A DNA stretch of 64,000 nucleotides from Eubacteriales bacterium (GCA_045660785.1 JAZREL010000014.1:4849-68848); one strand, 5' to 3'; shown: positions 23,434 through 49,157, numbered from the stretch's first letter. The notes: generated by a model from the letters alone, not told the origin. Numbers and translations: made by a program.

Positions 23434-23505
23434 TTATAATTCTACCTCAAGCAGCTTGTCAAGCTCCGCGCTCTTTTCGCTTGAGTATAGGGGGAGGCGT
23501 ATATC
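23434..23505 (-). pseudogene. Displaced, recoded duplicate of the last 23 codons + stop of dapA
   Basis: Encodes DIRLPLYSSEKSAELDKLLEVEL*, versus ELRLPLSPTQKSAELDKLLEIEL* at the live dapA end. It lies downstream of the inserted element. Confidence 0.7.
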
Positions 23506-23602
23506 TTGCCTTCCCCAGTTAGGGGAAGGGGGACCGCAGTTGGGTGCTTGAAAACAAGCGGTGCGCGAAAACGCCTGCGGTGGATGAGGTGTATAATGCA
23601 TA
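23506..23602 (-). mobile_element. Solo-end palindromic mini-element (divergent member of the DUF559-cassette TIR family) inserted right after the dapA stop
   Basis: Outer palindrome CCTTCCCC-agtta-GGGGAAGG, then GGGGACCGCAGTTGGGTG and CTGCGGTGGATGAGGTGT. These parallel GGGGACCGCTTGCGGTGGAGGGATTGGTGTG of the full element at 40110. Confidence 0.5.
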
Positions 23603-24478
23603 TCAAAGCTCAATTTCGAGTAATTTGTCAAGCTCTGCGCTCTTCTGAGTCGGAGAAAGGGGGAGGCGTAGCTCGTTTTCCATAAAACCGAGGCGCGAAA
23701 GGAGATATTTTAGCGGCACGGGGTTGGTTTCACAAAAAAGTGATGATATAATTGGAGATAGCTCACGTTGGATTTTTAGCGAAATATCGACACGTCCCGC
23801 CACGAAATGAGTGCAAAGCTCGCGCATTTTTCTTGGCACAAGGTTTGAAGCAACCGAAACTACGCCATAGCCGCCAAGGGACAAATTCAGGTAGGTCATA
23901 TCGTCGTTGCCTGTGTAAATTGCGTATCTTTCGCCGTATAATCGGTGCAGCTCCTGCAAATAGCTCGCGTTTCCGCTTGCCTCCTTAACCGCGACTATAT
24001 TTTCCTCATCAATGAGCTTTCCGTAAACGGAAAGTGGGATTTGCGCGCCCGTTCTTGACGGCACGTTATATAAAATCAGCGGAAGCGGTGTGCTTTTTGC
24101 CACCTCCCTAAAGTGATTTACAAGCCCGTTTTCGTTTGGCTTATTGTAGTATGGCGAGACGCACAAAAGTGCATTTGCCCCCGAGGAGTGTGCGTTTTTG
24201 GCATATCTTACCGTGCTTTCGGTGCAGTTTGTGCCGACACCGACAACAAGGGGAATTCTTCCCTTTACTACCTCGCTTGAAAATTTTACTATTTCCTCGC
24301 GCTCACTCTCGCTAACCGTGGGTGCTTCCCCCGTTGTGCCGAGAACCACTATCGCGTCTGCGCCGTTTTCTATTTGATATTCTATTACGTGCCCAAGCGC
24401 TAAGCAGTCAACCTCGCCGCCCTTAAAGGGAGTGGGGAGCGCGGTGATAACGCCAAAGGGCAAAATATTCTTTTGCAT
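23603..24478 (-). CDS. dapA: 4-hydroxy-tetrahydrodipicolinate synthase
   Basis: 291 aa. GVITALPTPF, VLGTTGEAPT and YNVPSRTG motifs. Confidence 0.9.
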   Translation of the reverse strand: MQKNILPFGVITALPTPFKGGEVDCLALGHVIEYQIENGADAIVVLGTTGEAPTVSESEREEIVKFSSEVVKGRIPLVVGVGTNCTESTVRYAKNAHSSGANALLCVSPYYNKPNENGLVNHFREVAKSTPLPLILYNVPSRTGAQIPLSVYGKLIDEENIVAVKEASGNASYLQELHRLYGERYAIYTGNDDMTYLNLSLGGYGVVSVASNLVPRKMRELCTHFVAGRVDISLKIQRELSPIISSLFCETNPVPLKYLLSRLGFMENELRLPLSPTQKSAELDKLLEIEL

Positions 24479-24597
24479 ACAAATTCCTCCAAAATGTGAA
24501 AAAGTGTTGAAAATATTTTCTAAATGCTATATACTATATATGATATGCGCGTATATTGTATGCGCGCGCAATTTTTCACGCGGAAGGGGCGAACAAT

Positions 24598-25677
24598 ATG
24601 ATTAAAAATACCTTACCCGAAACCACGCTCAAGACGAGTGATTTCTACTACGATTTACCAAGTGAGCTTATCGCACAGACCCCTGCCACACCAAGGGACT
24701 CCTCGCGCCTTTTGGCACTTCGCGGGGACGGCACTATTGAAGATAAGCATTTTTACGATATAATTGACTATCTTAACGAGGGTGACACGCTCGTTATCAA
24801 CGACTCGCGCGTTATCCCTGCAAGAATTTTTGGCGAAAAGGTGCGCCAAGGTGAGTTTGAGGCAGCGCCATCGAAAATTGAAACCTTGCTTTTGAAGCAT
24901 CGCGGAAACGACGAGTGGGAGGTGCTTTTGCGCCCTGCCAAGAAAATCAAAATTGGCGGTAAAATCAAGTACGATTGCTCCCTTGAGGGCACAGTTGTTG
25001 ACGTTATCGAGGACGGCAACAGAATTGTAAAATTCGATTACGATAAAGAAAAATACACGAATATTTTCGAGGTTTTGGAGTTGGTTGGCTCCATGCCCCT
25101 TCCCCCATACATCACTGAAAAGCTTGAGGACAAAAACCGCTACCAAACTGTGTACGCGCGCGAAAACGGAAGCGCGGCGGCACCGACGGCAGGCCTTCAT
25201 TTCACCCCCGAGCTTCTTGAAAAAATAAAGGCGAAGGGTGTAGCTATCGTGCCCGTTATGCTCCACGTTGGGCTTGGCACGTTCCGCCCTGTTAAGGAAG
25301 AAAACATCACCGACCATATAATGCACGCGGAGTTTATCACGGTTAGCCCCGAGAGCGCGCGCATAATAAACGAGCGCAGAAAAAAGGGCGGACGCACCGT
25401 TGCCGTTGGCACAACCTCGTGCCGCACACTTGAAAGCGCCTCAAACGACGACGGCGAGGTTTTAGCCACCGCCGATTCAACTGAAATTTTTATTTACCCC
25501 GGATATAAGTTCAAGGCAGTTGATGCCTTGATTACAAACTTCCACTTGCCCGAAAGCACGCTTATTATGCTTATTTCAGCATTCCGCGGCAGGGAAAGAA
25601 TAATGGAGGCGTATCGTCACGCGGTTGCGGAAAAATACAGATTTTTCTCGTTTGGCGATGCAATGCTTTTAGAATAG
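24598..25677 (+). CDS. queA: S-adenosylmethionine:tRNA ribosyltransferase-isomerase
   Basis: Start at MIKNTLPE after GGAAGGGG. DFYYDLPSELIAQTP, PLPPYI and GLHFT motifs. Confidence 0.9.
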   Translation: MIKNTLPETTLKTSDFYYDLPSELIAQTPATPRDSSRLLALRGDGTIEDKHFYDIIDYLNEGDTLVINDSRVIPARIFGEKVRQGEFEAAPSKIETLLLKHRGNDEWEVLLRPAKKIKIGGKIKYDCSLEGTVVDVIEDGNRIVKFDYDKEKYTNIFEVLELVGSMPLPPYITEKLEDKNRYQTVYARENGSAAAPTAGLHFTPELLEKIKAKGVAIVPVMLHVGLGTFRPVKEENITDHIMHAEFITVSPESARIINERRKKGGRTVAVGTTSCRTLESASNDDGEVLATADSTEIFIYPGYKFKAVDALITNFHLPESTLIMLISAFRGRERIMEAYRHAVAEKYRFFSFGDAMLLE

Positions 25678-25696
25678 TTTAAAGGAGACGTGCCAA

Positions 25697-27289
25697 ATGG
25701 ACTTGATTGCAATTGTTGGGCCGACGGCGGTTGGCAAAACCGCGCTCGCACTTGCTTTGGCGAAAAGATATAACGGCGAGATTATCTCGTGCGATTCCAT
25801 GCAAATTTACAAGCATATGGACATTGGCACAGCTAAGCCGACAAAAAATGAGCAAGCAATTTGCCCTCACCACCTAATTGATATAAAGGAGCCAAACGAG
25901 GACTTTTCCTGTGCGGAATACGCCACCTTGGCACGTGAGGCAATTGAAGATATAAGGAGCCGCGGCAAGCTGCCTATTTTCTGTGGCGGCACGGGTCTTT
26001 ATCTTGACAGCGTTTTGAAAATTTCGTCATTTAGCGAAACACAGGTTGACGAAAGCTACCGCGCCGAGCTTGAAAAATTTGCAAGTGAAAACGGTGCTGA
26101 CGCGCTCCACGCGCTTCTCTCATCGGTTGACCCTGAAAGCGCCGAGGCAATTCACAAAAACAACCAAAAAAGAGTAATTCGCGCACTTGAAATATATAAG
26201 TGCACGGGTAAGAAAAAGAGCGAGCTTGACCGTCTTTCGCGTGAGCAGGAGCCGCCGTACGATGCCACGGTCTTTTTCCTAACCGCACGCGAGCGCGAGC
26301 TTCTCTATTCGCGAATTGAACAGCGCGTTGATATTATGCTTGACGAGGGGCTGGAAGCCGAGGCGAAATACCTTTGGGAAAACGAGCTTTTGAAGCCCGA
26401 ATATAATTCCTACGCGGCAATCGGCTACAAGGAGCTTATCCCTTATTTCAAGGGCGAAAAAACGCTTGAGGGGTGCATCTTAGACCTAAAGCTTGCCACG
26501 CGCCACTATGCAAAAAGACAGCTCACTTGGTTCTCGCGCGAGGAAAGCTATCATAAAATTTACATCGACGCAGAAAACGCATACGATTCCGCTTGCGCCA
26601 TAATCGACGGGCAAAAAAGCCCAAAGCAAAAAGCGATTGACGCGGGCTTTGACGAGGTTACAGATACCATTCGCCGCCTTGATCCAAATGGCAAGGTTTC
26701 GCTCCTTGCCGCAACAAAAATGCAGGATGCCAAGGACATAAACTACCTCATTTCCAAGGGAGTTAAGATTATTGGCGAAAACCGAGTAAACGAGCTGATT
26801 GAAAAATACGACTCGTACGATAAAAGTGCGGAGCTTCACTTTATCGGCACACTCCAAAAGAATAAGGTTAAATATATAATAGATAAGGTTTCCTTAATTC
26901 ACTCGCTCGATTCATATTCACTTGCCGAGGAAATCAGCAAGCGCGCAACCAAAATCGGCAAGGTAATGGACGTTTTGGTTGAGGTAAACAGCGGACGTGA
27001 GGAAAACAAGGGCGGCATTTTACCCGAGGACCTTTATAGCTTCCTTGCCTCACTCACCTCACTCTCAGGCGTGCGCGTGCGCGGACTTATGACAATGGCG
27101 CCAAGGTGCGAGAAAAAAGAGGACTACTTAAAATATTTTTCACTGACGAAGGAACTTTTCGATGCGCATTTCGGTGGCGACGAAAACGCGATTTTGTCAA
27201 TGGGAATGAGCGAAAGCTACGAGGAAGCAATTTTATCTGGAGCGACTCTTGTTCGAGTTGGCTCAAAAATATTTGGAAGGAGAAATTAA
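25697..27289 (+). CDS. miaA: tRNA dimethylallyltransferase fused to YggS/PLPBP-type PLP-binding domain
   Basis: Single 530-aa ORF. Residues about 1-300 are MiaA (IVGPTAVGKT P-loop, SCDSMQIYKHMDIGTAKP, YAKRQLTWF). Residues about 315-530 are YggS/YlmE (KIIGENRVNE, HFIGTLQKNK, GLMTMAP, LSMGMSESY, VRVGSKIFG). Confidence 0.85.
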   Translation: MDLIAIVGPTAVGKTALALALAKRYNGEIISCDSMQIYKHMDIGTAKPTKNEQAICPHHLIDIKEPNEDFSCAEYATLAREAIEDIRSRGKLPIFCGGTGLYLDSVLKISSFSETQVDESYRAELEKFASENGADALHALLSSVDPESAEAIHKNNQKRVIRALEIYKCTGKKKSELDRLSREQEPPYDATVFFLTARERELLYSRIEQRVDIMLDEGLEAEAKYLWENELLKPEYNSYAAIGYKELIPYFKGEKTLEGCILDLKLATRHYAKRQLTWFSREESYHKIYIDAENAYDSACAIIDGQKSPKQKAIDAGFDEVTDTIRRLDPNGKVSLLAATKMQDAKDINYLISKGVKIIGENRVNELIEKYDSYDKSAELHFIGTLQKNKVKYIIDKVSLIHSLDSYSLAEEISKRATKIGKVMDVLVEVNSGREENKGGILPEDLYSFLASLTSLSGVRVRGLMTMAPRCEKKEDYLKYFSLTKELFDAHFGGDENAILSMGMSESYEEAILSGATLVRVGSKIFGRRN

Positions 27290-27290
27290 A

Positions 27291-27686
27291 ATGGGACTTT
27301 TTGATATTTTTAAGAAAAAGAGGGTTGACACATTTGACGACGAGGATGACGAGCTTCAAGCCGAAAACGGTGGCAAGGAGCAAACGCCCGAGGTTGCAAT
27401 TGAGGGACAGGTTGAACTTAAAATTTGCAAGCCGAGAACCTTTGAGCAAGCACTTAGCGCAGTTGATTACCTCGTTTCGGGCAGAACCGTGCTATTAAAC
27501 CTTGAGGACATAGACCGTTCTCTCTACCGCAGAATTATCGACTTTATAAGCGGTGCGTCCTATGCGCTTGGCTTAACTATAAAAAAGGCAACGAACGATT
27601 CATACTTCATCGCACCTCGCGAGGTTGACGTTAGCGGCGAAATCTTCGACACGCCCGATGCCGACGAGGAATTTTTCACGATTTAA
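27291..27686 (+). CDS. sepF: Cell division protein SepF
   Basis: Start at MGLFDIFKKK after GGAAGGAG. The core VLLNLEDIDRSLYRRIIDFISGASYAL is typical of SepF. Confidence 0.85.
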   Translation: MGLFDIFKKKRVDTFDDEDDELQAENGGKEQTPEVAIEGQVELKICKPRTFEQALSAVDYLVSGRTVLLNLEDIDRSLYRRIIDFISGASYALGLTIKKATNDSYFIAPREVDVSGEIFDTPDADEEFFTI

Positions 27687-28002
27687 TTTGCCTGCAAGAA
27701 TAGCAAGGGCTTTAGAGGACGAGAAAAAAGTGCGAGCGAGCCGGCGTCGTCGTACTAATGTACGACAGAGGGCTTGGTCGCGATTAGAAAAGCAGAAAGG
27801 AGATTTTCTTTTTGAAAATCTCTACCTTAAAAGGTTCGGTGGCGTCTTGACCTGCGAACATAAAATTAAAATTGCTTTTCGTTTTAAGAGGTTCCCCGAA
27901 CCGAATAGGGGTCCTCAAAGCGAAGAATGAGCTTTGGGGTTCTCGTAGTTGAGGTTTTGGGGTTCACGTTTTTCGTGCTGTAAAGAACTTGAAAGGAGAA
28001 AA

Positions 28003-28290
28003 ATGGAATTTTTACAAATTATATGGTACTATTTAGGGCGAATGATTTTTTGGGCGCTTTCCCTTTTTCAAACGGTGCTTATCGTGCGCGCAATTCTTTC
28101 GTGGATCCCGCCCGTGCGCCGCTCGCGCTTCTTTTGGTTTCTTAACAAGATTACCGAGCCGTTTTTGCGCCCAATCCGAAACGTGCTATTCAAAATCAGT
28201 TGGATGCGCACAGTTCCCATTGATTTTTCATCTTTGATTTTATTTATAATCATTGACGTTGCAATGATGATGCTCAGCATCGTATTATAG
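28003..28290 (+). CDS. YggT family membrane protein
   Basis: Start at MEFLQ after GAAAGGAG. RAILSWIP...ITEPFLRPIR motif. Confidence 0.8.
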   Translation: MEFLQIIWYYLGRMIFWALSLFQTVLIVRAILSWIPPVRRSRFFWFLNKITEPFLRPIRNVLFKISWMRTVPIDFSSLILFIIIDVAMMMLSIVL

Positions 28291-28297
28291 GAGAAAA

Positions 28298-29868: not shown

Positions 29869-29874
29869 AACAGA

Positions 29875-29907
29875 AAAACGCGGCTCGCACGAGTCGCGTT
29901 TTCTTTG
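29875..29907 (+). terminator. Rho-independent terminator
   Basis: ACGCGGCTC-gcac-GAGTCGCGT (one mismatch) followed by a T-rich tract. Confidence 0.6.
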
Positions 29908-29943
29908 TTAATATCTTGAATTATAGACACAGGTAGGCACTTT

Positions 29944-31524: not shown

Positions 31525-31559
31525 TATAAAAGTTCAAGAGTTTTTTGAAGGGGGATTTT

Positions 31560-32441
31560 ATGTACACCTTAAATGAATACGTAACGAGCGACGGCATACC
31601 CTACGTGCACGCGCAAGACATACCGCGCCTGAGTGTTTTCAAGACGTTTGATTGCGGTCAGTCCTTCCGCTTCGACCCTGTTTCGAGGTTTGGAAACGAG
31701 TGCGAGTTTGGCGGCGTTGCATTTGGAAAATACGTCGTTTTCGCGCAAAACCACGACACCGAAATTTACGTTTACGGCGCGACAAAAAACGATTTTGAAA
31801 AAATTTGGGCGCATTATCTTGCGCTCGATATTGACTACGAAGCAATTGACAGCCAAATTATTTCCACGGTTGACTCAGCCCATGCTAAGCTTGCCACGGA
31901 ATATTCAAGGGGAATAAGAATTTTAAGGCAGGAGCCGTGGGAGGCGCTTTGCTCATTTATCATCTCTCAAAATAATAACATACCCCGAATTAAGAAAATT
32001 ATAGCAGAAATTTCAAAAAAGTACGGGGACGTGGTTGATTTTGACGGTCAAGCATACAACGCCTTCCCATCCGCCGAGTCACTTTTCTTGGCAGGCGAGG
32101 CAGAAATTTTTGCACTGAAAACGGGCTTCCGCGCAAAGTACATTCACGATGCCGCATCAAAGGTGTCAAACGGTGAAATCTCACTTGATAAGGTAATGGA
32201 AAGCTCCTTTGAGGACGCGTTGGCACTCCTTTCAAAAATAAAAGGGGTTGGACCCAAGGTTGCCTCGTGCGCGCTCCTTTTCGGCTTTGGCAAAACCGAG
32301 GCGTTTCCAATCGACGTTTGGATCAAGCGCTCACTCGACGCGCATTTCGGCGGCAATTTAGACGTTGAAGCCCTTGGCGGCAGCGCGGGCATTTTCCAGC
32401 AATATCTATTTTATTACGAAAGATATAATCAAAACACTTGA
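31560..32441 (+). CDS. ogg: HhH-GPD DNA glycosylase (8-oxoguanine DNA glycosylase-like)
   Basis: Start at MYTLNEY after GAAGGGGG. FDCGQSFRF and the GVGPKVASCALLFG...PIDVW catalytic Lys/Asp pattern. Confidence 0.75.
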   Translation: MYTLNEYVTSDGIPYVHAQDIPRLSVFKTFDCGQSFRFDPVSRFGNECEFGGVAFGKYVVFAQNHDTEIYVYGATKNDFEKIWAHYLALDIDYEAIDSQIISTVDSAHAKLATEYSRGIRILRQEPWEALCSFIISQNNNIPRIKKIIAEISKKYGDVVDFDGQAYNAFPSAESLFLAGEAEIFALKTGFRAKYIHDAASKVSNGEISLDKVMESSFEDALALLSKIKGVGPKVASCALLFGFGKTEAFPIDVWIKRSLDAHFGGNLDVEALGGSAGIFQQYLFYYERYNQNT

Positions 32442-32466
32442 CTTAACTAATTCTTTGATATATAAT
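32438..32466 (+). promoter_or_regulatory. Sigma-A type promoter
   Basis: TTGACT (overlapping the ogg stop), 17 nt, TATAAT. Confidence 0.55.
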
Positions 32467-32499
32467 TTTATTGAAAATATTTATTAAAAGAGGTACTAT

Positions 32500-33525
32500 A
32501 TGAAAACAGTATGCTTTGGCGAAATTATGCTCCGCTTAAATCCGGCGGGATACACAAGATTTATTCAAACAGATACGTTTGGCGCAACCTACGGTGGCGG
32601 TGAAGCAAACGTTGCAGTTTCTCTTGCTAACTACGGCATTGATGCATCCTACGTTACAAAGCTTCCAAGCCACGAAATCGGTCAAAGCGCGGTTAACTCA
32701 CTCCGCAGATACGGCGTTGACACAAGCGACATCGTAAGAGGTGGCGAGCGCGTTGGTATTTACTACCTTGAAACAGGCGCATCACAAAGACCGTCAAAGG
32801 TTATTTACGACCGTGCATATTCAGCTATTGCTCTTGCAAAGAGAAGCGATTTTGATTGGGAAAAGATCCTCGACGGCGCAAATTGGTTCCACTTTACAGG
32901 CATCACTCCGGCACTCGGCGGTGAGCTTCCCGAAATTTGTATGGACGCACTTAAGGTTTGCCGCGAAAAGGGCATCACCACAAGTTGCGACCTTAACTAC
33001 CGCAAAAACCTTTGGTCAACAGAGGAAGCAGGCAAGGTTATGGGCGAGCTTATGAAGCTTGTTGACGTTTGCATTGCAAACGAGGAGGACGCTGAAAAGG
33101 TATTCGGCATTAAGGCAGAAAACACAGACGTTGACGCAGGCGTTGTTAACCACGAGGGCTACAAGAGCGTTGCATCACAGCTCTCTGCCCGTTTCGGCTT
33201 CAAGCGCGTTGCTATTACACTCCGTACAAGCATTTCGGCAAACGACAACGTTTGGGCGGCTATGCTCTATGATGCAAACGAAAACGAATACTATTTCTCA
33301 CGCTCATATAACATCCACATCGTTGACCGTGTTGGCGGCGGTGACTCATTCGGCGGCGGTCTTATCTACGCTTCCTTGATGAACAAGTCAAGCCAAGACG
33401 TTATCGAATTTGCAGTTGGGGCATCATGCCTCAAGCACACAATTATCGGTGACTATAACTTAGTTAGCGTAAAAGAGGTTGAAGGCCTCATCAAGGGCGG
33501 CGGCTCAGGACGCGTTCAAAGATAA
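32500..33525 (+). CDS. kdgK: 2-dehydro-3-deoxygluconokinase (PfkB family)
   Basis: 341 aa. FGEIMLRLNP, GGGEANVAV and DRVGGGDSF motifs. Confidence 0.85.
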   Translation: MKTVCFGEIMLRLNPAGYTRFIQTDTFGATYGGGEANVAVSLANYGIDASYVTKLPSHEIGQSAVNSLRRYGVDTSDIVRGGERVGIYYLETGASQRPSKVIYDRAYSAIALAKRSDFDWEKILDGANWFHFTGITPALGGELPEICMDALKVCREKGITTSCDLNYRKNLWSTEEAGKVMGELMKLVDVCIANEEDAEKVFGIKAENTDVDAGVVNHEGYKSVASQLSARFGFKRVAITLRTSISANDNVWAAMLYDANENEYYFSRSYNIHIVDRVGGGDSFGGGLIYASLMNKSSQDVIEFAVGASCLKHTIIGDYNLVSVKEVEGLIKGGGSGRVQR

Positions 33526-33591
33526 CTTCCAAGCTTAAGGACAATCCCTCCGTCAACTACGTTGACACCTCCCTTTGCACAAAGGAGGCAA
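33526..33591 (+). mobile_element. Solo-end palindromic mini-element (TIR-family member) inserted right after the kdgK stop
   Basis: CAATCCCTC + hairpin GTCAAC-tac-GTTGAC + CTCCCTTTGCACAAAGGAG. This has the same three-part architecture as the right TIR of the DUF559 cassette at 40482. Confidence 0.6.
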
Positions 33592-33621
33592 GGCGGCGGA
33601 AGCGGACGAGTTCAAAGATAA
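33592..33621 (+). pseudogene. Displaced, recoded duplicate of the last 9 codons + stop of kdgK
   Basis: GGC GGC GGA AGC GGA CGA GTT CAA AGA TAA, versus the live GGC GGC GGC TCA GGA CGC GTT CAA AGA TAA. There are 5 nt differences, all synonymous (including TCA/AGC Ser). Confidence 0.7.
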
Positions 33622-33633
33622 TTACATAAAATT

Positions 33634-33665
33634 AAGACACAGGGCTTGCCCTGTGTCTTTTTTTA
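33634..33665 (+). terminator. Rho-independent terminator (native kdgK terminator)
   Basis: AAGACACAGGG-cttg-CCCTGTGTCTT followed by TTTTTT. Confidence 0.8.
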
Positions 33666-38233: not shown

Positions 38234-40141
38234 ATGAAGGACGGATATATAAAGGTTAAATCAATCTCGCCGCGCACAGAGGTTGGCGGAGTTAGCTTTA
38301 ACAAGGAAGAAATCGTAAAGGAAATCAAAAGCGCAATCGGCCAGGGCGTAAAAATCCTCGTTTTTCCCGAGCTTACGTTAACGGGTAAGACGGCGGGTGA
38401 TATGGCTTACAGCGGCGTTATACTAAACGCTTGTGAAAAAGCGCTTCTAAACATCAAATTTGCGACACAGGGTAGCGATATTTTGGTTTTTGTCGGCGCT
38501 CCGCTTCAGTATAAGGGTGCATCCTATTCCTGCGCGGTTGCAATAAAATCGGGTGAGATTTTGGGCGTTGTGCCTAAGATTGGAAAAATGCCGTACTTTA
38601 AGGATTTTATAAAAATCGGTGACGAGAAATATCCGTTTGGCACGGATTTACTCTTTACCTGCAAGGAAATTAGTGACCTGACCATTGGCGTTGTCATCGG
38701 TGACGCCGTTGCAAATCCTTCACCGAAGGGATTTTTCCTTTGCGAAAACGGCGCAACAGTTATTGTTAACCTCTCGGGCAGCTACGAGCTTGTTTCGAGC
38801 GAGGAAATAAGACGCGCCGCGTTTGTTTCAAAGAGTTATGCCACGAGAAGTGCTTATATCGTTGCAAATCCAAGCGAGGACGAGTCAACGACGTCTAACG
38901 TTTATTCCGCTCATAATTTCATTGTGGAAAACGGTGATATTTTAGCGGAAAGCAAGCCGTTTGAGAAGAAAACAGGCGACTGTGTGTCTGAAATTGACGT
39001 TTCTTACCTTGCGGGCAAAAGAAATTCCGTCGGTGCGCGCGCCGAGGCAATAACGGACGTTTCCTTCTCTTTTAAGCTTGAAAAAACCACTCTTACAAGA
39101 AAAATTTCAAAAACACCTTTTTTTCCTGAAGGCAAGGAAGAACTCAAAAGGCACTGTGAAAAAATCCTCACAATGCAGTCACGCTCCCTTGCCAAAAGGT
39201 TGACTGCATCTTATTCCAAGGGAATGGTGCTTGGAATTTCGGGCGGCCTTGACTCCACTCTTGCCCTTCTTGCCTGCGTTAAGTGCGCGGACTATCTCGG
39301 TTGGGACAGAAAAACGGTCACCGCCATTACAATGCCCTGCTTTGGCACAACAAAGCGCACAAAATCAAACGCGACCGAGCTTTGCAAATCCCTTGGAGTT
39401 ACGCTTCGCGAAATAAACATCTTTGAAGCAACAAGGGTTCATTTCAAGGACATCGGACACGACGAAAACGACCATAGCGTAGTTTACGAAAATGCGCAAG
39501 CACGTGAGCGCACACAAATTTTAATGGACGTGGCTAATTCAATCGGCGCGCTTGTTATCGGCACGGGCGACCTTTCCGAGGTTGCACTCGGTTGGTCAAC
39601 CTACAACGGTGACCATATGTCGATGTATAATATAAATTCCGCCCTTCCAAAGACCTTAATCAGACACGTGGTCGAGCATTTTGCAAATATAAGCGACGAA
39701 AACGTGAAAGGAATTTTGCTTGATATTCTTGATACTCCCGTTTCCCCCGAGCTTCTTCCAGCCAAGGAAAACGGCGAAATTGAGCAAAAAACAGAGGACA
39801 TTGTCGGCCCATACGAGTTACACGATTTCTTTATTTACAATTTTGTAGGGCGCAAATTTGCCCCCTCAAAGATTTACCGCTTGGCGCTTTACGCCTTTGG
39901 TGGAAAATACGACGGCGACACCGTTTATAAATGGCTCACCGTATTTATCAAGCGCTTCTTTACTCAGCAGTTCAAGCGCTCCTGCTCACCTGACGGAATC
40001 AGAATCGGCTCAGTTTCCCTCTCAAAAAATGATTTTTCAATGGTAAGCGATTTTTCGTACAAATCATTTTTAGAGGAGTTAAATTCATGCCTCCCTTGTG
40101 CAAAGGGAGGGGGACCGCTTGCGGTGGAGGGATTGGTGTGA
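38234..40141 (+). CDS. nadE: Glutamine-dependent NAD+ synthetase, C-terminus replaced by read-through into an inserted element
   Basis: 635 aa. N-terminal nitrilase-like domain plus a synthetase domain (GISGGLDST, NAQARERT). The last 19 aa (SCLPCAKGGGPLAVEGLV and nearby residues) are encoded by the element's inverted repeat. The native ...EELNENK* ending survives in the displaced copy. Confidence 0.85.
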   Translation: MKDGYIKVKSISPRTEVGGVSFNKEEIVKEIKSAIGQGVKILVFPELTLTGKTAGDMAYSGVILNACEKALLNIKFATQGSDILVFVGAPLQYKGASYSCAVAIKSGEILGVVPKIGKMPYFKDFIKIGDEKYPFGTDLLFTCKEISDLTIGVVIGDAVANPSPKGFFLCENGATVIVNLSGSYELVSSEEIRRAAFVSKSYATRSAYIVANPSEDESTTSNVYSAHNFIVENGDILAESKPFEKKTGDCVSEIDVSYLAGKRNSVGARAEAITDVSFSFKLEKTTLTRKISKTPFFPEGKEELKRHCEKILTMQSRSLAKRLTASYSKGMVLGISGGLDSTLALLACVKCADYLGWDRKTVTAITMPCFGTTKRTKSNATELCKSLGVTLREINIFEATRVHFKDIGHDENDHSVVYENAQARERTQILMDVANSIGALVIGTGDLSEVALGWSTYNGDHMSMYNINSALPKTLIRHVVEHFANISDENVKGILLDILDTPVSPELLPAKENGEIEQKTEDIVGPYELHDFFIYNFVGRKFAPSKIYRLALYAFGGKYDGDTVYKWLTVFIKRFFTQQFKRSCSPDGIRIGSVSLSKNDFSMVSDFSYKSFLEELNSCLPCAKGGGPLAVEGLV

Positions 40142-40533
40142 ACAGACGTCACAACAAGCTACTCGTACCATTAGCAAAGAATCTTCGAAAAGATATGACG
40201 GATGAGGAAAAACACTTGTGGTATGATTTTTTGAGAACCTACCCTGTTCGCTTCATTCGCCAAAAAATAATAGACGGCTATATAGTAGATTTTTATTGTG
40301 CAAAAGCTAAATTGGTTATTGAGCTTGACGGTTCTCAACACGGCGAAGAAAAAAACGCAATAAAAGATTCTGCGCGCGATTTTGAACTCTCGAAATACGA
40401 CATAAAAGTCATAAGGATACCTAATCATAAAATTTGGAATAACTTTAAGGGCGTTTGCGAGTACATTGACTTTCAAGTTCTCCAATCCCTCAGTCAGCAT
40501 AGCTGACAGCTCCCTTTGCACAAGGGAGCCAAA
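40085..40533 (+). mobile_element. DUF559-nuclease cassette bounded by about 46-nt composite terminal inverted repeats
   Basis: Left end, 40091-40136: CTCCCTTGTGCAAAGGGAG + GGGGACCGCTTGCGGTG + GAGGGATTGG. Right end, 40482-40528: CCAATCCCTC + AGTCAGCATAGCTGACAG + CTCCCTTTGCACAAGGGAG. The outer 19-mer and inner 10-mer are exact reverse complements. The middle is a different hairpin in each end. Confidence 0.65.
40138..40506 (+). CDS. DUF559 domain endonuclease (Vsr/PD-(D/E)XK-like)
   Basis: 122 aa from GTG (VNRRHNKLLVPLAKNLRKDMTDEEKHLWYDFLR...YIVDFYCAKAKLVIELDGSQH...). The ATG at 40087 is an alternative start but lies inside the palindrome. The stop falls in the right-end hairpin. Confidence 0.75.
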   Translation: MNRRHNKLLVPLAKNLRKDMTDEEKHLWYDFLRTYPVRFIRQKIIDGYIVDFYCAKAKLVIELDGSQHGEEKNAIKDSARDFELSKYDIKVIRIPNHKIWNNFKGVCEYIDFQVLQSLSQHS

Positions 40534-40650
40534 TCCCGCTCACCTGACGGAGTTCGTATTGGCTCGGTTTCCCTCTCCAAGAACGACTTTAAAATGGCAA
40601 GTGACTTTTCATACAAATCATTTTTAGAGGAATTAAACGAAAATAAATAA
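40534..40650 (+). pseudogene. Displaced, recoded duplicate of the last about 37 codons + stop of nadE
   Basis: Encodes SPDGVRIGSVSLSKNDFKMASDFSYKSFLEELNENK*. Over the 33 codons shared with the live copy, 15 codons differ: 12 synonymously and 3 by replacement (I/V, S/K, V/A). Confidence 0.75.
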
Positions 40651-42558: not shown

Positions 42559-42626
42559 TTTATTACCTTTCGTCAAGGCGCGCCCGTGGGAAACGCCCCA
42601 CGAGCCACCTTAATTATTTATTTATG

Positions 42627-44120: not shown

Positions 44121-44140
44121 TGATGATGTGCCTCCTAATA

Positions 44141-44500
44141 TTAGTTAAGAGCACAAAGAGTAGCGCCTGAATCAACAGTTTGACCTGCTGCTACGTTTAC
44201 GCTTGCAACAGTAGCATCAGCAGGAGCCAAGATTTCGTTTTCCATCTTCATTGCTTCAAGAATCATCAAAACGTCGCCCTTCTTAACTGCTTGACCGTTT
44301 GATACGTTAACCTTCAAAATTGTACCTGGCATTGGAGCAGTAATTGTTTGTGCGCCCGCAGGAGCTGGAGCTGCCACAGGAGCTGCAGGAGCTGCTTGGG
44401 GTGCAGGAGCTGCCGCTGGTGCTTTGATATCTGCCTTATCAATTACCTCAATTGTGATTTCATAAACATTTCCGTTAACATTAACCTTATAAGCTTTCAT
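44141..44500 (-). CDS. Biotin carboxyl carrier protein of the decarboxylase
   Basis: 119 aa. Ala/Pro linker and EAMKMENEI biotinylation motif. Confidence 0.85.
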
Positions 44501-44520
44501 TTTATTTATTTCCTTTCAAA

Positions 44521-44841
44521 TTATAACTTTTTAAATGAGATTACGCGGATAGCGGAAATGTCCGTACCCTCTTCTTCAGCGATTGCCGCACATACTGCAG
44601 CTACAATTTCGCCACGGTTTTCAACCGCCACAGGTGCCACGGGTGCGCTTTGCACAGGTGCCTGCTCTTTTTGTGTTGGCTTTGCGCCTCTTTCAAGCAG
44701 CTTGTTGCAGATAAACGTCATAAGCTCAACAAGACCGATAATGCAGATAAGTCCAACGAAAACTACCGCAACACCAATCAAGCATACAATTGCCCAGTGA
44801 ATCTCGCCCTCTGCCGCAAACATAAACAATGATTTGTCCAT
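44521..44841 (-). CDS. oadG: OadG-like decarboxylase gamma subunit
   Basis: 106 aa with a single N-terminal TM. First gene of the operon. The C-terminal IAAVCAAIAEEEG pattern is typical of OadG. Confidence 0.65.
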   Translation of the reverse strand: MDKSLFMFAAEGEIHWAIVCLIGVAVVFVGLICIIGLVELMTFICNKLLERGAKPTQKEQAPVQSAPVAPVAVENRGEIVAAVCAAIAEEEGTDISAIRVISFKKL

Positions 44842-45059
44842 TTTTTCACTCCTTTTCGCTCTTTAGGCATAAGGGATTTTTTGAACAACCCCAAATTAAC
44901 CCATTTTACACTATTCTATCATAGTTTGTCAAAAAAGTAAAGTCATTATTATATAATAATGTAAAAATTTTTAGTATGCGCTTTTTTATTTACTTTTTTT
45001 GTGTAAGCATTTACATTCCTTTTTCTATATGATAAAATAAACTTAGGGAGGTGTTAACA

Positions 45060-45587
45060 TTGAATCATAAAACAGCATTAATTAAAAAAGTAATTTGTTT
45101 ATCGTTTGTTTTGATTTTTGTTCTTTCTCTTTGCTCCTGTGTTAATAGGTTCACAGTAAAGATTGACAGCCACGCGCACAGCTACGTTAAGGAATCGTTT
45201 TTATTTGAAAACAAAATAAAGGGCGCGGTTTATAAAAATCCCAATTTTAATGAAGGCGACCCCGACGACGAGGAATTCATTTGGAACGAGGAAGGTCCAA
45301 GCAAGCTCTATTTTATAATTGAGGACGAAAAAACGTATAGTGAAATTTTCACAGACGAGGCGCCAAGCGTTGATTTTGAAAAGAAAATGGTCATTTTGCT
45401 TATTTATTGGGACATGAATCCAAACTTAACTCATTATATAAGGAGCATAAAATTAAAAAATAACGAATTATCTGTTTCCTTATCATCTACAATCAGTTTT
45501 CGAACCGGTTCTACTTGGCCATACCCAAGATGCACCACTCTGACAATGAACAAAGCGGAAATTACAAACGTATATTTTGAAATTTAG
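45060..45587 (+). CDS. Hypothetical lipoprotein
   Basis: The track ORF starts at GTG 45051. TTG at 45060 has better spacing from AGGGAGG. Signal peptide with LSLCSC lipobox. AT-rich. Confidence 0.45.
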   Translation: MNHKTALIKKVICLSFVLIFVLSLCSCVNRFTVKIDSHAHSYVKESFLFENKIKGAVYKNPNFNEGDPDDEEFIWNEEGPSKLYFIIEDEKTYSEIFTDEAPSVDFEKKMVILLIYWDMNPNLTHYIRSIKLKNNELSVSLSSTISFRTGSTWPYPRCTTLTMNKAEITNVYFEI

Positions 45588-45627
45588 AGTGTTATTATAT
45601 AACGATTTAAAAAATTTTACCGTTTTT

Positions 45628-46056
45628 TCACAAGCTTTCTGCCAAATTTATTATTTTCAAGCTTTTCCTTCTCGCCCTTTCTACCCATTTGGCGGAATTT
45701 GATGTAGCATCGACCAAATATACCACTGCCACATTGGAATTTTTAATCATCCATTCGTTTCTTTTTGAAATCGCAAATTTAGGCAAAACACTCTCTTGCC
45801 CTTCGAGAAAAACCGTTTCCTCTTGATTTTCGCCAAGGGCGCGCTCGTCGATATATGACAAAACTATTCGATATTTTTTAATTTTATTTTCATTTTTCAA
45901 TTCTGCCAATACAGATTGAACCAAAAGGTCAAACGTACCGCTGTTTCCAACAAAAAAGCACTCGTAGCCATCCTTGGCTAAGCTTTCTATTGTTTCTTTT
46001 AGCTTTCCTTTTATCGAATATGGCGCGTTTCGATGTCCAAAAAATGTGCAGTTCAT
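45628..46056 (-). CDS. SLOG/DUF1273 family protein
   Basis: 142 aa. The N-terminal CTFFGHRN and VGNSGTFD pattern is typical of DUF1273 (YpsA-like SLOG) proteins. Confidence 0.55.
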   Translation of the reverse strand: MNCTFFGHRNAPYSIKGKLKETIESLAKDGYECFFVGNSGTFDLLVQSVLAELKNENKIKKYRIVLSYIDERALGENQEETVFLEGQESVLPKFAISKRNEWMIKNSNVAVVYLVDATSNSAKWVERARRKSLKIINLAESL

Positions 46057-46078
46057 TTTTCATCTCTCCTTGTTAAAT

Positions 46079-46152
46079 TTAGTATACTTGCTTTAAGTAT
46101 ACTAACAACATTATAGCACAAAATAATCTTAAAATATACTTATATTAAGATT
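46079..46152. promoter_or_regulatory. Two perfect inverted repeats in a divergent promoter region (candidate operators)
   Basis: TTAGTATACT-tgcttta-AGTATACTAA (46079-46105) and AATCTTAA-n12-TTAAGATT (46125-46152), between the SLOG gene and the RHH gene. Confidence 0.35.
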
Positions 46153-46158
46153 TTAGAG

Positions 46159-46350
46159 GTGCGCATGAGAAATAAAAATAACAAGCATTTGGGCATAGAG
46201 ATAGACCCCGAGCTTCACTATAAGCTGCATTATATTTCAAAATATTACGGACGAAGTGCAAACGGAGAAATTTTGTTTCTTATAAGACAAGCTATAAAAG
46301 ATTTTGAAAAGAGCGAGGGGGAAATAATCCCACCGCCAAAAGAAAACTAA
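46159..46350 (+). CDS. Arc/MetJ-type ribbon-helix-helix DNA-binding protein
   Basis: 63 aa. HLGIEIDPELHYKLHYISKYYGRSANGEILFLIRQAIKDFE fits a beta-strand/helix/helix RHH layout. Confidence 0.5.
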   Translation: MRMRNKNNKHLGIEIDPELHYKLHYISKYYGRSANGEILFLIRQAIKDFEKSEGEIIPPPKEN

Positions 46351-46388
46351 AAAATGCACGGCATTTCGCCGTGCATTTTATTATTTTC
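46349..46388. terminator. Bidirectional rho-independent terminator
   Basis: ATGCACGGC-atttc-GCCGTGCAT with flanking A- and T-runs. Confidence 0.7.
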
Positions 46389-46420
46389 GTAGGGTACGAC
46401 GCCCTCGGCGTACCGTTTTC

Positions 46421-46456
46421 TTATTTGTTAAGAAGTGTTTCAACAAGTGTGGGTGC
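46421..46456 (-). pseudogene. Displaced, recoded duplicate of the last 11 codons + stop of alaS
   Basis: Encodes APTLVETLLNK*, versus the live ALALVETLLSK*. 8 of 36 nt differ, including synonymous Leu recodings (CTC/CTT, TTG/CTT). Confidence 0.65.
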
Positions 46457-46538
46457 TTCTTTTCGCCTCCCTTGTGCAAAGGTGAGGTGGCACGACTTGT
46501 CGTGACGGAGGGATTGACCGTTTGCTTTAGCAATTATT
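46457..46538 (-). mobile_element. Solo-end palindromic mini-element (TIR-family member) inserted right after the alaS stop
   Basis: The plus strand reads CTCCCTTGTGCAAAGGTGAG + GTGGCACGACTTGTCGTGAC + GGAGGGATTG. This is the three-part TIR architecture, and its orientation relative to the host gene matches the kdgK copy. Confidence 0.6.
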
Positions 46539-49157
46539 TTATTTGCTCAAGAGTGTTTCAACAAGTGCAAGCGCATCGGCAATTTTGGAGATGTCCTTGC
46601 CGCCGCTCATTGCGCTGTCGGGGCGTCCGCCGCCCTTACCGCCTGTTACTGCGCTAACCTCGCCAAGGATTTTGCCTGCGTGTGCGCCGTTTTTAACTGC
46701 ACCCTTACCGCATACTGCGATAAAGTTGAGCTTTTCGCCTGAATGGATTGCAAATACAGCAACTGCGTTTTCGTCCTTGTCCTTGATTACGTCACCAAGT
46801 GAACGAACCGCGTCAGCACCCATATCACCAAGGTTTGCGGTGATAACGTTGAATGCGCCAACTGCTTTTGCGCTGCTGATTAAGTCGTTAACTCTTGATG
46901 AAGCCATCTTGGAGTTAAGAGATTCAATCTCGCGCTTGAGAGCTTTTATTTCCTCATTTACCGCGCCTGCACGCTTAGCAATATCGTTTACGTTTTGGCA
47001 CTTAAGCTCGCTTGATGCCTTTTCAAGGAGATTTTCCTTGTTTTCAAGGAGTGAAAGCACGCCGTAGCCCGTTGTCGCTTCAATTCTGCGCACGCCTGCC
47101 GCAACGCCAATCTCGGAAATAATCTTAAACATACCTGCCTTTGCGGTATTGTCAAGGTGAGTACCGCCACAAAGCTCGGTTGAATAGTCGCCCATTTTAA
47201 CCATACGTACAACCTTGCCGTACTTTTCTCCAAAGAGAGCCATTGCACCGTTTTTACGTGCGGTTTCAATATCTGTTTCGAGTGTTTCAACCACTGTGCC
47301 CGAAAGGATTGCCTCGTTTACAAGTGCTTCAACCTCTTTGATTTCGTCCTTTGTGAGTGCTTGGAAGTGTGTAAAGTCAAATCTGCCGATTCTTTCATCA
47401 ACGTATGAGCCCGCTTGCTCAACGTGTGTGCCGAGAACCTTGCGGAGTGCGGCTTGGAGCAAGTGAACGGATGAGTGGTTTCTTGCAATAGAAGCACGTC
47501 TTGCGCCGTCAACCTGGCAGTTGAGCGTGTCGCCAACCTTTACTGTGCCGCTTGCAATTTTACACATATGAATATATACGCCGTCTGATTTTTTGGTGTC
47601 AACAACCTCAATTTCAGCATTTTCGTTTGTAAGTGCGCCTGTGTCGCCAACCTGACCGCCGCCCTCACCGTAGAATGAGGTAGTGTCGAGAACAACGGAG
47701 CATTCGCCCTCGCTTACTTCGCTTACGCTTTCGCCGTTTTCGTCAATAATTGCGATAACCTTGCCGCTTGCTTGGAGCGTGGTGTAGCCCTCGAACACAG
47801 TCTTTGGAAGCTCCAAGGATTTTTCCTTGTCCTGCCAACCGCTAATGCTTGCACGTGCGCTTCTCGCTCTTTGCTTTTGCTCCTGCATAAGCGCTGTAAA
47901 CTTGTCCATATCGGTGCCAAGTCCGTTTTCCTCGGCAATTTCACGGGTTAAGTCAATTGGAAAGCCAAAGGTGTCGTAAAGCTTGAACGCGTCCGCGCCG
48001 TCAAGAGTATCCTTGCCGCTTTCCTTTGCTTCCTTAATAAGATTTTCAAGAATTGAAAGTCCTTGGTCGATGGTTGCGGCAAAGCGCTCCTCCTCAAGAG
48101 CAAGAACCTTTTTGATGTAGTCTGATTTTTCCTCAAGCTCGCGATAGCCATCCTTGCTTTCGCCAATTGCAACCTCGCACATTTCAACAAGGAATGCACG
48201 CTCAATTCCAAGGAGCTTACCGTGACGGCAAGCGCGGCGAATGATACGGCGAAGCACGTAGCCCCTGCCCTCGTTTGAAGGAATAACGCCGTCGGAAATC
48301 ATAAACATTGCGCTTCTTGTATGGTCGGTGATAACGCGGATTGAAATATCATCTGCGGCATCCTTGCCGTAGGTTTTGCCTGAAATTTCGCACACGGTGT
48401 CAAGGATTTTACGTACGGAGTCAACCTCGAACATATTGTCAACGTCCTGCATTACGCAAGCAAGACGCTCAAGACCCATACCTGTATCGATGTTCTTTTG
48501 TGCAAGCTCTGTATAGTTGCCTTGTCCGTCGTTGTTGAACTGTGAAAATACGTTGTTCCAAATTTCCATGTATCTGTCGCAGTCGCAGCCCGGCTTACAG
48601 TCGTCTGAGCCACAGCCGTGCTTAATTCCACGGTCAAAGTAAATTTCGGAGCAAGGGCCGCAAGGACCTGAGCCGTGCTCCCAGAAGTTATCTGCCTTAC
48701 CGAGGCGAACAACGTGCGCAGGGTTAACGCCGATTTTGTTTACCCAAATATCGTACGCTTCCTCGTCGTTTTCGTAAATTGACGGCCAAAGAAGCTCACC
48801 GGGGATTTCAAGTGTAACGGTTAAAAACTCCCAAGCAAACTGAATTGCCTCCTCCTTGAAGTAGTCACCGAAGCTGAAGTTGCCAAGCATTTCAAAGAAC
48901 GTGCCGTGGCGCGCGGTGTGACCAACTCTTTCAAGGTCAGGTGTTCTTATACACTTTTGGCAGGTGGTAACTCTCTTTGAAGGAGGCACAACCTCACCTG
49001 TAAAGAACTTTTTCATCGGAGCCATACCCGAGTTTATAAGAAGAAGGGATTTATCGTTGTTTGGAACGAGCGAAAAGCTGCCAAGACGAAGGTGTCCCTT
49101 GCTTTCAAAATAGGAAAGATATTTTTCTCTTAAATCGTTAAGTGATGTCCATTTCAT
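46539..49157 (-). CDS. alaS: Alanine--tRNA ligase
   Basis: Start at MKWTSLNDLREKYLSYFESKGH (18 codons into the track ORF). Class II motifs, editing domain and C-terminal DHHA1-like GGGRPD. Confidence 0.95.
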   Translation of the reverse strand: MKWTSLNDLREKYLSYFESKGHLRLGSFSLVPNNDKSLLLINSGMAPMKKFFTGEVVPPSKRVTTCQKCIRTPDLERVGHTARHGTFFEMLGNFSFGDYFKEEAIQFAWEFLTVTLEIPGELLWPSIYENDEEAYDIWVNKIGVNPAHVVRLGKADNFWEHGSGPCGPCSEIYFDRGIKHGCGSDDCKPGCDCDRYMEIWNNVFSQFNNDGQGNYTELAQKNIDTGMGLERLACVMQDVDNMFEVDSVRKILDTVCEISGKTYGKDAADDISIRVITDHTRSAMFMISDGVIPSNEGRGYVLRRIIRRACRHGKLLGIERAFLVEMCEVAIGESKDGYRELEEKSDYIKKVLALEEERFAATIDQGLSILENLIKEAKESGKDTLDGADAFKLYDTFGFPIDLTREIAEENGLGTDMDKFTALMQEQKQRARSARASISGWQDKEKSLELPKTVFEGYTTLQASGKVIAIIDENGESVSEVSEGECSVVLDTTSFYGEGGGQVGDTGALTNENAEIEVVDTKKSDGVYIHMCKIASGTVKVGDTLNCQVDGARRASIARNHSSVHLLQAALRKVLGTHVEQAGSYVDERIGRFDFTHFQALTKDEIKEVEALVNEAILSGTVVETLETDIETARKNGAMALFGEKYGKVVRMVKMGDYSTELCGGTHLDNTAKAGMFKIISEIGVAAGVRRIEATTGYGVLSLLENKENLLEKASSELKCQNVNDIAKRAGAVNEEIKALKREIESLNSKMASSRVNDLISSAKAVGAFNVITANLGDMGADAVRSLGDVIKDKDENAVAVFAIHSGEKLNFIAVCGKGAVKNGAHAGKILGEVSAVTGGKGGGRPDSAMSGGKDISKIADALALVETLLSK

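Follow-up and report, generated by a model that had tools for sequence, protein, structure and literature searches.

Short hairpin-bounded elements, one carrying a DUF559 nuclease gene, lie between duplicated gene tails in Clostridia and may spread by a homing-type route

Introduction

Prophages e14 and phage 21 integrate at icd by means of a tyrosine integrase and attP/attB sites; they are tens of kilobases long and bring an alternative 3' end for the gene. In REPtrons and REPINs (repetitive extragenic palindromic (REP) sequences with a RAYT) and in miniature inverted-repeat transposable elements (MITEs), a small gene lies between inverted structured repeats, solo copies are more numerous in 3' intergenic space, and the hairpins covary. 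Mitochondrial mobile open reading frames (ORFs) with C-terminal gene duplications form a further group, of which Allomyces atp6 carries one. Such ORFs have been described in Glomus atp6, atp9, cox2 and nad3 (PMC3630166). The WHO elements of Torulaspora and Lachancea yeasts are described by Coughlan et al. (2020, PMC7282813) as replacing the 3' end of FBA1, keeping the downstream 3' fragment as a homology arm and forming clusters, and have been termed a rare third category of homing element (PMC7282813; Osborne et al. 2026 preprint, 10.64898/2026.08.13.744650). I-Bth0305I, finally, is a Vsr-like (EDxHD) homing endonuclease with extra DNA-binding regions, located within a self-splicing group I intron (PMC3239194). 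Here we analyse a 64,000-nt stretch of an Eubacteriales genome (GCA_045660785.1, JAZREL010000014.1:4849-68848; hereafter the window) that holds four short hairpin-bearing elements, one of them enclosing a DUF559 nuclease gene, each set between two copies of the 3' end of its host gene: dapA, a sugar kinase gene called 'kdgK', nadE or alaS. The comparative evidence leads us to suggest that these elements are homing-type cassettes.

Results

Four elements between duplicated gene tails

Host genes in the window were identified by Pfam search, and repeat units by a motif scan, a regular-expression scan and a covariance model; coordinates are positions in the whole stretch (Table 1), and comparison contigs carry L numbers. 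The scans gave five terminal inverted repeat units, which make up four elements, the dapA variant being missed by the covariance model. A first-pass annotation of the window had placed all four copies at the 3' ends of dapA, 'kdgK', nadE and alaS; Pfam, the unit scans and the top-ranking tail duplications agree with this placement, Pfam establishing only the PfkB family for the gene which that annotation named kdgK. Along all four host genes the order is gene body, tail copy, element and second tail copy. The direct duplications flanking the elements are diverged copies of the host gene's last 30-104 nt, and they are the top local direct repeats of the whole 64 kb.

The live tail of dapA, kdgK and alaS has its own stop codon, and the element begins 0-22 nt later. 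In nadE the last three codons are replaced by the element; the live ORF runs 58 nt (18 codons) into the left repeat and ends ...SCLPCAKGGGPLAVEGLV with a TGA that overlaps the GTG start of the nuclease gene, which is translationally coupled to its host gene at this site. The outer palindrome adjoins the downstream ('displaced') tail copy in all four cases, as had been annotated, and every downstream copy retains an open frame and a stop. The accompanying statement that the native terminator follows the displaced tail holds for kdgK (33634-33659) and alaS (46351-46379) only: a promoter-like site comes next after the downstream dapA tail, and after the downstream nadE tail, 3' of which a terminator search found none, come the ribosome-binding site and ATG of the next gene.

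Positions 46450-46463 of the alaS solo element are probably the decayed 5' part of the downstream alaS tail copy; in L300 an orthologous alaS solo has an intact downstream tail and the same unusual hairpin hp1. The possible fifth copy in the window lies 53 nt downstream of a gene at 27249-27686 (+) and has no tail duplication.

Table 1. Host genes, elements and tail copies in the 64,000-nt window
Feature	Position	Strand	Basis and details
dapA (DHDPS)	23603-24478	-	Pfam; live tail copy 23603-23671, stop 23603-23605
dapA solo element, long-loop variant	23502-23602	-	Read from sequence and alignment; hp1 23509-23529; hp2 stem 23533-23539 / 23575-23581; inner motif 23582-23591
Downstream dapA tail copy	23434-23501	-	Open frame kept; ends ...LDKLLEVEL, stop
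dapA tail duplication	23447-23501 / 23616-23670		75% identical
Possible fifth copy, degenerate relic with hp2 only	27739-27777	-	Weak covariance-model match, E=0.035
PfkB-family sugar kinase gene, called 'kdgK'	32500-33525	+	Pfam; live tail copy 33496-33525
kdgK solo element	33526-33591	+	16-nt spacer and two-hairpin unit 33541-33590; covariance model 68.6 bits
Downstream kdgK tail copy	33592-33621	+	Peptide GGGSGRVQR, stop; same as live copy
kdgK tail duplication	33496-33525 / 33592-33621		83% identical
nadE (NAD synthase)	38234-40141	+	Pfam; live tail copy 39980-40083
nadE complete element	40084-40533	+	Left unit 40088-40136 (inverted), nuclease ORF, right unit 40482-40531; covariance-model matches
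DUF559/Vsr-like, PD-(D/E)xK nuclease ORF	40087/40138-40506	+	Pfam PF04480; GTG start
Downstream nadE tail copy	40534-40650	+	...SFLEELNENK, stop 40648-40650
nadE tail duplication	39980-40083 / 40534-40637		83% identical
alaS (AlaRS)	46539-49211	-	Pfam; live tail copy 46539-46568, ending ...LVETLLSK, stop
alaS solo element	46450-46538	-	Spacer 46518-46538, two-hairpin unit 46464-46517; covariance model 62.8 bits
Downstream alaS tail copy	46421-46449	-	...LVETLLNK, stop
alaS tail duplication	46416-46449 / 46534-46567		82% identical

Occupied and empty sites, and spread between species

The window was compared with ten related genomes, rumen and hindgut Clostridia metagenome-assembled genomes (MAGs) with 79-88% NadE identity. 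No element is present at nadE, kdgK or alaS in L131, which together with L132 has the highest NadE identity among the genome-contig relatives (88%). A complete element occupies nadE in the window, L132, L133, L135 and L136 and in strains L291-L299, and L138 has a decayed solo with a partial downstream tail; the empty nadE tail of L137 and L131 contains ...CCTGATGGAGTCAGAATCGGCTCG... At kdgK the same position is occupied in L132 by a different hairpin subfamily, and alaS is occupied in L135, L140 and L300 and empty in L131, L132, L301 and L302. The presence/absence mapping that the first-pass annotation had called for thus shows polymorphic sites, with the same tails hit in several species. In the window's own lineage essentially every copy adjoins a gene end, and tail duplications are present at six of the seven host-gene tails counted there (nadE, kdgK, alaS, dapA, the OGG glycosylase gene, and the genes at L132:366 and L135:20498). 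The structures recur across independent NCBI, ENA and JGI assemblies.

At nadE, the element phylogeny is incongruent with that of the host. Between L133 and L135 the proportion of synonymous differences (pS) is 0.01 in the element and 0.45 in the host nadE, and between L291 and L292 the element is identical at 440 of 440 nt around a nadE body that is 83.9% identical; between the window and L132, the element has pS 0.77 and the host nadE 0.54. Because the element crosses species and yet stays at one codon of nadE, its behaviour is homing-like rather than that of random transposition. Occupied and empty alleles, site-faithful horizontal spread and incongruence between element and host are among the features by which a homing endonuclease gene is recognised, and these three were found.

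A solo unit with a short (~17-20 nt) tail duplication was also seen on the gene upstream of kdgK in L131 (2769-2821). This is an OGG/HhH-GPD glycosylase gene, named by homology to window 31545-32441, and the homologous site in the window (32441-32500) is empty.

Which tail copy is foreign

Taken together, the four tail pairs of the window have pS 0.58 and a proportion of nonsynonymous differences (pN) of 0.11, a ratio of 0.19 (P=5e-9 against neutrality). The changes include switches between codon families (Ser TCA/AGC, Arg AGA/CGT), and the five differences between the kdgK copies, TCA/AGC among them, are all synonymous. Since the pairs differ mainly at synonymous sites, both copies must have diverged under coding constraint, and simple decay of one copy in place does not explain them. 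Comparing live with displaced tails, as had been advised at first pass, therefore shows the tails to be xenologous or mosaic.

Which copy is foreign differs by site. At kdgK the downstream copy matches the empty L131 allele (AGC type) at 29 of 30 positions, and the foreign patch is in the live copy. For the window's alaS, the closest AlaS relatives (94% identity) end ...ALVETLLNK, as the downstream copy does. The reverse holds for L135 alaS. Comparison with L301, an empty allele at conspecific level (14 differences in 1500 nt), shows its live tail to be native, and its downstream copy agrees with that native tail at only 22 of 36 positions but with the downstream copy of another species, L300, at 34 of 36; here the element came with a passenger tail fragment. 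The L135/L301 conspecific pair led us to drop the idea that the live tail is always imported and the displaced one always native, and with it the annotation's general assumption that the displaced copy is the old native tail. The native dapA tail could not be identified among DapA relatives, which have at most 81% identity.

Mosaics are seen in other genes and species. Live tails of L211 and L227 both end ...CKIENN and their downstream copies ...CKKDG(E), each before the stop, and the duplicated lengths differ (~75 vs ~45 nt). In L136 nadE the last 15 nt of the live tail, beside the element, differ from the downstream copy at 7 positions, and the 98 nt before them are identical. Such mosaics are expected from double-strand-break repair off a donor allele, as the recipient's single tail can pair with either donor copy.

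A recoded patch, a stacked array and decay

The occupied L291 allele differs from its conspecific empty counterpart L137 by the element, a 111-nt tail duplication and silent recoding beside the junction. The two are 98.3% identical over 1200 nt of nadE (21 differences) and match at 296 of 300 positions downstream. A 22-nt segment that lies 13-34 nt 3' of the duplication boundary holds eight of the 21 (clustering P=1.4e-7). All eight are synonymous and recode seven codons in an eight-codon stretch, including CGC vs AGA, and the patch is present in both tail copies. This is the signature that would be expected from sequence-specific cutting at that point and resistant occupied alleles, and it is indirect evidence only for site-specific cleavage of alleles that lack the element.

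L292 and L293 carry a stacked array of tail, complete element E1, tail, an hp1-only relic of an older element E2, decayed tail and terminator, as repeated invasion would produce. Solo or hairpin-only copies at nadE in L138 and L292 are visibly decayed from complete elements. The first-pass suggestion that solo ends and the single DUF559 copy form a non-autonomous/autonomous pair is unproven as it was put: these nadE solos are decay products, and the solos of the window belong to other hairpin subfamilies than the repeats of the DUF559 copy.

The DUF559 nuclease

The product of the ORF within the nadE element belongs to the DUF559 family (PF04480, E=7.8e-27, profile positions 6-104 of 109). It matches PDB entry 3HRL, an uncharacterised endonuclease-like protein (E=1.2e-11). 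Its match to I-Bth0305I, a Vsr-like homing endonuclease, is weaker (3R3P, catalytic domain, E=0.026) and spans the DF...IE.DG core. Exact-protein look-ups of the window's DUF559 product, of a 99% relative and of AlaS gave no match. There are also weak PHROG matches annotated 'homing endonuclease' and 'HNH endonuclease', and an NCBIfam PRK09767 match of 49.9 bits, under the equivalog cut-off of 218. The last nuclease codons (QSLSQ...) fall inside the right unit. With a ratio of nonsynonymous to synonymous substitution (dN/dS) of 0.05-0.17, and synonymous sites saturated between lineages, the nadE-type nuclease ORF is under strong purifying selection. Every looked-up DUF559 homologue with at least 74% identity overlaps the nadE stop, starting 4 nt inside, and no complete element associated with AlaS, kdgK or dapA was present among the sampled DUF559 loci (one query was out of frame).

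Several unusual ORFs accompany the element. In L297 (2501-2959) the DUF559 ORF runs through the right repeat into the downstream nadE tail, giving a 152-residue product that ends ...FSDFSYKTFLEELDTTDRRTL before the stop. Occupied nadE alleles (window, L132, L133, L135, L136, L291, L297) share a conserved 17-18-residue C-terminal extension from the left repeat, with the consensus S[CS]L[PL]CAKGGGPL[AV]VEGL[VAKI], and gene callers report the downstream nadE tail as a 41-residue ORF (L291 2893-3018). The extension and the tail ORF are likely sources of odd annotations.

The repeat unit

The basic unit, about 50 nt long, consists of the motif CAATCCCTC, a variable hairpin (hp2) and a conserved hairpin (hp1; CTCCCTTTGCACAAGGGAG) with the consensus CTCCCTTT[G/A]CACAAGGGAG. 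Two such units in inverted orientation around the nuclease gene (~122 residues) form a complete element. In an alignment of 37 distinct copies 93.6% of cells are paired, all six hp2 pairs show changes in both partners, and the pair that closes hp1 covaries as well (G-C vs C-G). The covariation score was reached by none of 500 shuffles, and slid registers fell far short of it too. Rfam gave no match at gathering threshold in the window and no relevant one at E<=10 around the kdgK copy. The long-loop subfamily of the dapA solo is also found at kdgK in L132 and in L259.

In L140 (16099-16207) and L134 (~11870-11960) a palindromic module of ~60 nt (...CCCCTCTCGCCGAGGCGGCAACCCTTTTGTCGCTTTGCGACATTT.CCCTCGCAGGG...) is nested in the hp2 loop of a unit, which in L134 stands directly after the nadE stop without a tail duplication. 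Hairpin units appear to serve as insertion targets for other small repeats.

Family-wide census

The four window copies belong to a very large clostridial family. The scoring covered over 8000 DUF559 relatives, for the most part from metagenomes of gut and rumen and from MAGs of Clostridia or Oscillospiraceae. At 80 metagenome loci with the nuclease, the covariance model placed units on each flank of the ORF in 24 cases and on one flank or both in 44. Units were sampled from viral contigs scanned with the hp1 core (among the matches listed) and from relatives, and in this sample 170 solo units stand against 5 complete elements. On other contigs, 131 non-redundant copies among the matches listed had adequate flanks; in 41 of them (31%) a co-oriented long ORF ends at most 60 nt from the inner end. 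Within this set there is a sharp peak 1-21 nt after a co-oriented stop, with 23 copies vs 4 in the mirror arrangement, and this asymmetry indicates a real preference for the position just after a stop, in fixed orientation.

A first duplication screen of the viral-contig copies was discarded as over-called, the hits on high-GC contigs being mostly neighbouring palindromic repeats or duplicated ribosome-binding-site/start regions. Phage-like contigs L018 (~2596-3133, minus-oriented) and L074 (~1114-1722) carry cassettes of ribosome-binding site, ORF and hairpin unit that are flanked by 19-24-nt duplications of the ribosome-binding site and start region, not of a gene tail. More generally, inserted gene cassettes may have the hairpin unit as their 3' boundary.

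Neighbouring features

Just downstream of dapA, on the minus strand (21674-23356), several tandem small genes (~126-136 residues) share a common 54-nt 5' end (copies at 21897-21950, 22290-22343, 22771-22824 and 23298-23351), an arrangement that resembles a tandem paralogue array; the product of the gene at 22946-23356 has a weak double-zinc-ribbon match at its N-terminus. A second, unrelated family of small palindromic repeats (e.g. CGTAGGGTACGACGCCCTCGGCGTACCG, TGTAGGGACAGGCGTCCCCGACTGTCCGCACA) occupies 3' intergenic spaces adjoining the studied elements: in the window at 46385-46415, 3' of the downstream alaS tail, downstream of alaS in L132 and L300, and downstream of nadE in L135, L136 and L140. 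In empty alleles, an IS200-like Y1 transposase gene lies convergent to alaS (L301 4150-4650, minus strand; PF01797, E=1e-5), and similar sequence is present downstream of alaS in L131, L137 and L302. As a mobilising enzyme it was rejected, the covariance model having found no repeat units beside it.

Discussion

On balance, and with some reserve, we favour a reading in which these elements are homing-type cassettes that are copied into empty alleles by gene conversion, with replacement of the gene's 3' end. The heritable cassette would consist of gene-tail copy, element and gene-tail copy, and homology-directed repair would carry it into alleles of that gene that lack the element, whether within the species or in related ones. 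The tail copies would serve as left and right homology arms, so that the host gene would always retain a complete, functional 3' end. The most likely trigger is cutting of element-free alleles by the element's nuclease near the upstream edge of the duplicated segment, where occupied alleles are synonymously recoded; we infer both the nuclease as maker of the initiating break and the position of that break. Because conversion tracts would vary in length, donor sequence could end up in the live tail, in the downstream one or in stretches of both. Once the cassette is fixed, its ORF would decay, leaving solo units and hairpin relics, and repeated invasion would pile up arrays. For the dapA, kdgK and alaS solos of the window, too, we infer descent from complete elements. 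Nuclease-triggered repair from a donor allele was one of the options raised in the first-pass annotation, and it is the one that the comparative data favour; its picture of selfish, non-disruptive elements tied to gene tails is likewise supported, as is horizontal movement with the element staying at nadE.

A number of observations weigh against this account. Gene-tail targeting, which had been put forward as a regularity of the family, is not a family-wide rule: beyond the 31% of copies close behind a co-oriented stop, a convincing adjacent tail duplication accompanies ~10 of the same 131 listed copies (~8-12%), gene-tail duplications were found in 3 of 21 testable complete elements (L211, L227, L259), which puts the share of copies with such a duplication in the wider samples at about 10-15%, and the orientation of complete elements to the upstream gene is only weakly biased (31 of 55). 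Three of the four window copies have no nuclease gene, and the target sequences have no common motif; when the right junctions of 11 sites were checked by eye, neither a common motif nor microhomology was found. Within nadE the right junction stands at three positions (-107, ~-98 and -40, the last in L297). Across species, a search for a consistent signature that separates resistant from sensitive alleles at the nadE boundary found none; the live tail of L136, for one, matches the empty L140 allele exactly in that region. Finally, the two nadE tail copies of L291, L136, L133 and L135 are 99-100% identical and species-specific around a cross-species element, which requires either subsequent gene conversion from one copy to the other or exchange of one element for another within the conserved repeats.

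Four other explanations have to be set against gene conversion by a homing-type cassette. In the first, REP-like structural units after stops (e.g. 3'-end RNA or DNA structures) would be carried passively when incoming DNA recombines, with the conserved gene as anchor, in the ordinary way or by homology-facilitated illegitimate recombination; a one-sided crossover would give the duplication as its by-product, and the nuclease would have no targeting role. Mosaic tails, variable junctions and the absence of a common target motif would all sit well with such hitchhiking, most copies elsewhere are simply intergenic after stops (the 23 vs 4 peak among the listed matches), and the hairpins could shield incoming single strands, so that fragments would end at the element edge. 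We nevertheless think it unlikely, as it leaves without explanation a nuclease that is under strong purifying selection while its synonymous sites are saturated, identical elements at the same codon in species 16% apart, and a junction that recurs across several species; the clustered synonymous patch and the stacked array fit an arms race of cleavage and resistance, not neutral carriage.

REP- or MITE-like transposition seems improbable given that no transposase is present and that the nuclease lineage is strictly bound to one gene. The unit, with or without the nuclease gene, would here insert by two staggered strand transfers, and gap repair would duplicate 30-110 nt, giving copies that start identical and then diverge. 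This would account directly for the near-identical, species-specific nadE tails of L291, L136, L133 and L135 around an element common across species, and the sharp element boundaries, the 170:5 ratio of solos to complete elements in the sampled contigs (among the matches listed) and a hairpin covariation typical of active repeat families point the same way. It does not predict a duplication whose length varies between genes and, in the three nadE junctions, within one gene, nor a pN/pS of 0.19 in the window's tail pairs, where ~0.5 would be expected under free decay of one copy. The L135 alaS copies are only 61% identical, with a downstream copy 94% identical to that of another species, and L211 and L227 share live tails across hosts.

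Campbell-type cycling, in which recombination between the tail copies would excise a circle of element and one tail, and a single crossover would reinsert it in the same gene elsewhere and regenerate the duplication, would yield an element between direct repeats, and precise loss between the copies would account for clean empty sites. It predicts donor sequence at both element ends, however, and the tails of L291/L292 and L133/L135 differ from 12 nt outside the identical element; tails of 30-40 nt are near or below the efficient length for RecA crossover, and the circle would have no replication or transfer function. We regard it as highly improbable. The fourth explanation, that an integrase inserts the element into the 3' end of a gene and attP brings the replacement tail (the e14 and phage 21 pattern at icd), or else that the structures are an assembly artefact, is effectively refuted by the element size of just 66-450 nt, the lack of an encoded integrase and the same structures in independent NCBI, ENA and JGI assemblies, even though prophage attachment sites inside genes also show replacement tails with synonymous differences.

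Preferring the homing-type cassette, we would tentatively go further, to a proposal that is possible without yet being the likelier case: the 'third category' of homing elements, those that are neither introns nor inteins, may have a widespread bacterial counterpart in gut Clostridia, a Vsr-like nuclease cassette between structured repeats that inserts at the 3' ends of essential genes and supplies a recoded replacement tail to rescue them. It would be a natural 'cleave-and-rescue' gene drive working via bacterial recombination, and its decay products would seed a REP-like repeat family. If this is true, a large bacterial family with an unrelated nuclease has arrived at the same strategy as the WHO elements, which would mean, together with the organellar parallels, that the strategy evolved repeatedly. 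It would also give the huge orphan DUF559 family a concrete biological role, and account for the mosaic, fast-evolving 3' ends of alaS, nadE and other core genes of gut Clostridia and for one origin of the short hairpin repeats and spurious small ORFs that follow stop codons in these genomes. The nucleases would then be compact and possibly programmable by selection, and recoded-rescue drives would have a natural model. Annotators would do well to flag the duplicated tails and the read-through extensions, such as the 18 extra NadE residues.

The WHO elements are among the closest known systems. Both they and the clostridial elements stand just downstream of an essential conserved gene, with a mobile unit that includes a replacement 3' end upstream and a downstream 3' fragment as homology arm; in both the 3' end evolves out of step with the gene body, arrays grow through repeated invasion, and older copies degenerate. 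The resemblance is one of workings, not of family, as the protein here is DUF559 and the targets are bacterial nadE, alaS, dapA and a PfkB kinase gene. The setting is a bacterial chromosome instead of a yeast nuclear genome with meiosis, and the protein a predicted Vsr-like nuclease of ~122 residues instead of a LAGLIDADG/intein-like zinc-finger protein. The duplicated segment is 30-110 nt long as against ~400 nt, many host genes are used instead of one, and either tail copy can be foreign (in L135 the downstream one). Unlike WHO elements, those described here are bounded by structured inverted repeats and have abundant solo derivatives.

The mitochondrial mobile ORFs also place an endonuclease ORF at a gene's 3' end with a foreign C-terminal segment, giving a hybrid gene with its former terminus downstream, but they are organellar, encode LAGLIDADG or GIY-YIG proteins and have neither hairpin terminal repeats nor a solo family. 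With I-Bth0305I our elements share a related catalytic fold and selfish, site-faithful behaviour. They are not group I or II introns or inteins, since no relevant Rfam match was found and the host ORFs end before or inside the element; it is the duplicated tail, not splicing, that rescues the gene. Inverted structured repeats around a gene, many scattered solos and covarying hairpins recall REP/RAYT systems and MITEs. The gene, however, is DUF559 and not the Y1 (IS200-like) transposase of REPtrons, there is no fixed target-site duplication, the flanks are gene tails, and each nuclease lineage is faithful to one gene site. An origin as a MITE or from an insertion sequence does not agree with solos that are single units rather than inverted pairs, or with duplications of 17-111 nt that vary within one gene. 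As with e14 and phage 21, the host gene stays intact through an alternative 3' end with mostly synonymous differences, here in elements without a recombinase that are a few hundred nucleotides long at most. Full-text literature searches returned no paper tying DUF559 to flanking repeats, homing or gene-tail duplications. The first-pass view of an undescribed class therefore stands for the bacterial case, of which we found no description, and not for the principle, which has precedent. As far as can be told, that principle is known from yeast nuclei and mitochondria, and what is new is its occurrence in bacteria, with this nuclease family, with structured terminal repeats that have a large solo progeny, and at many host genes.

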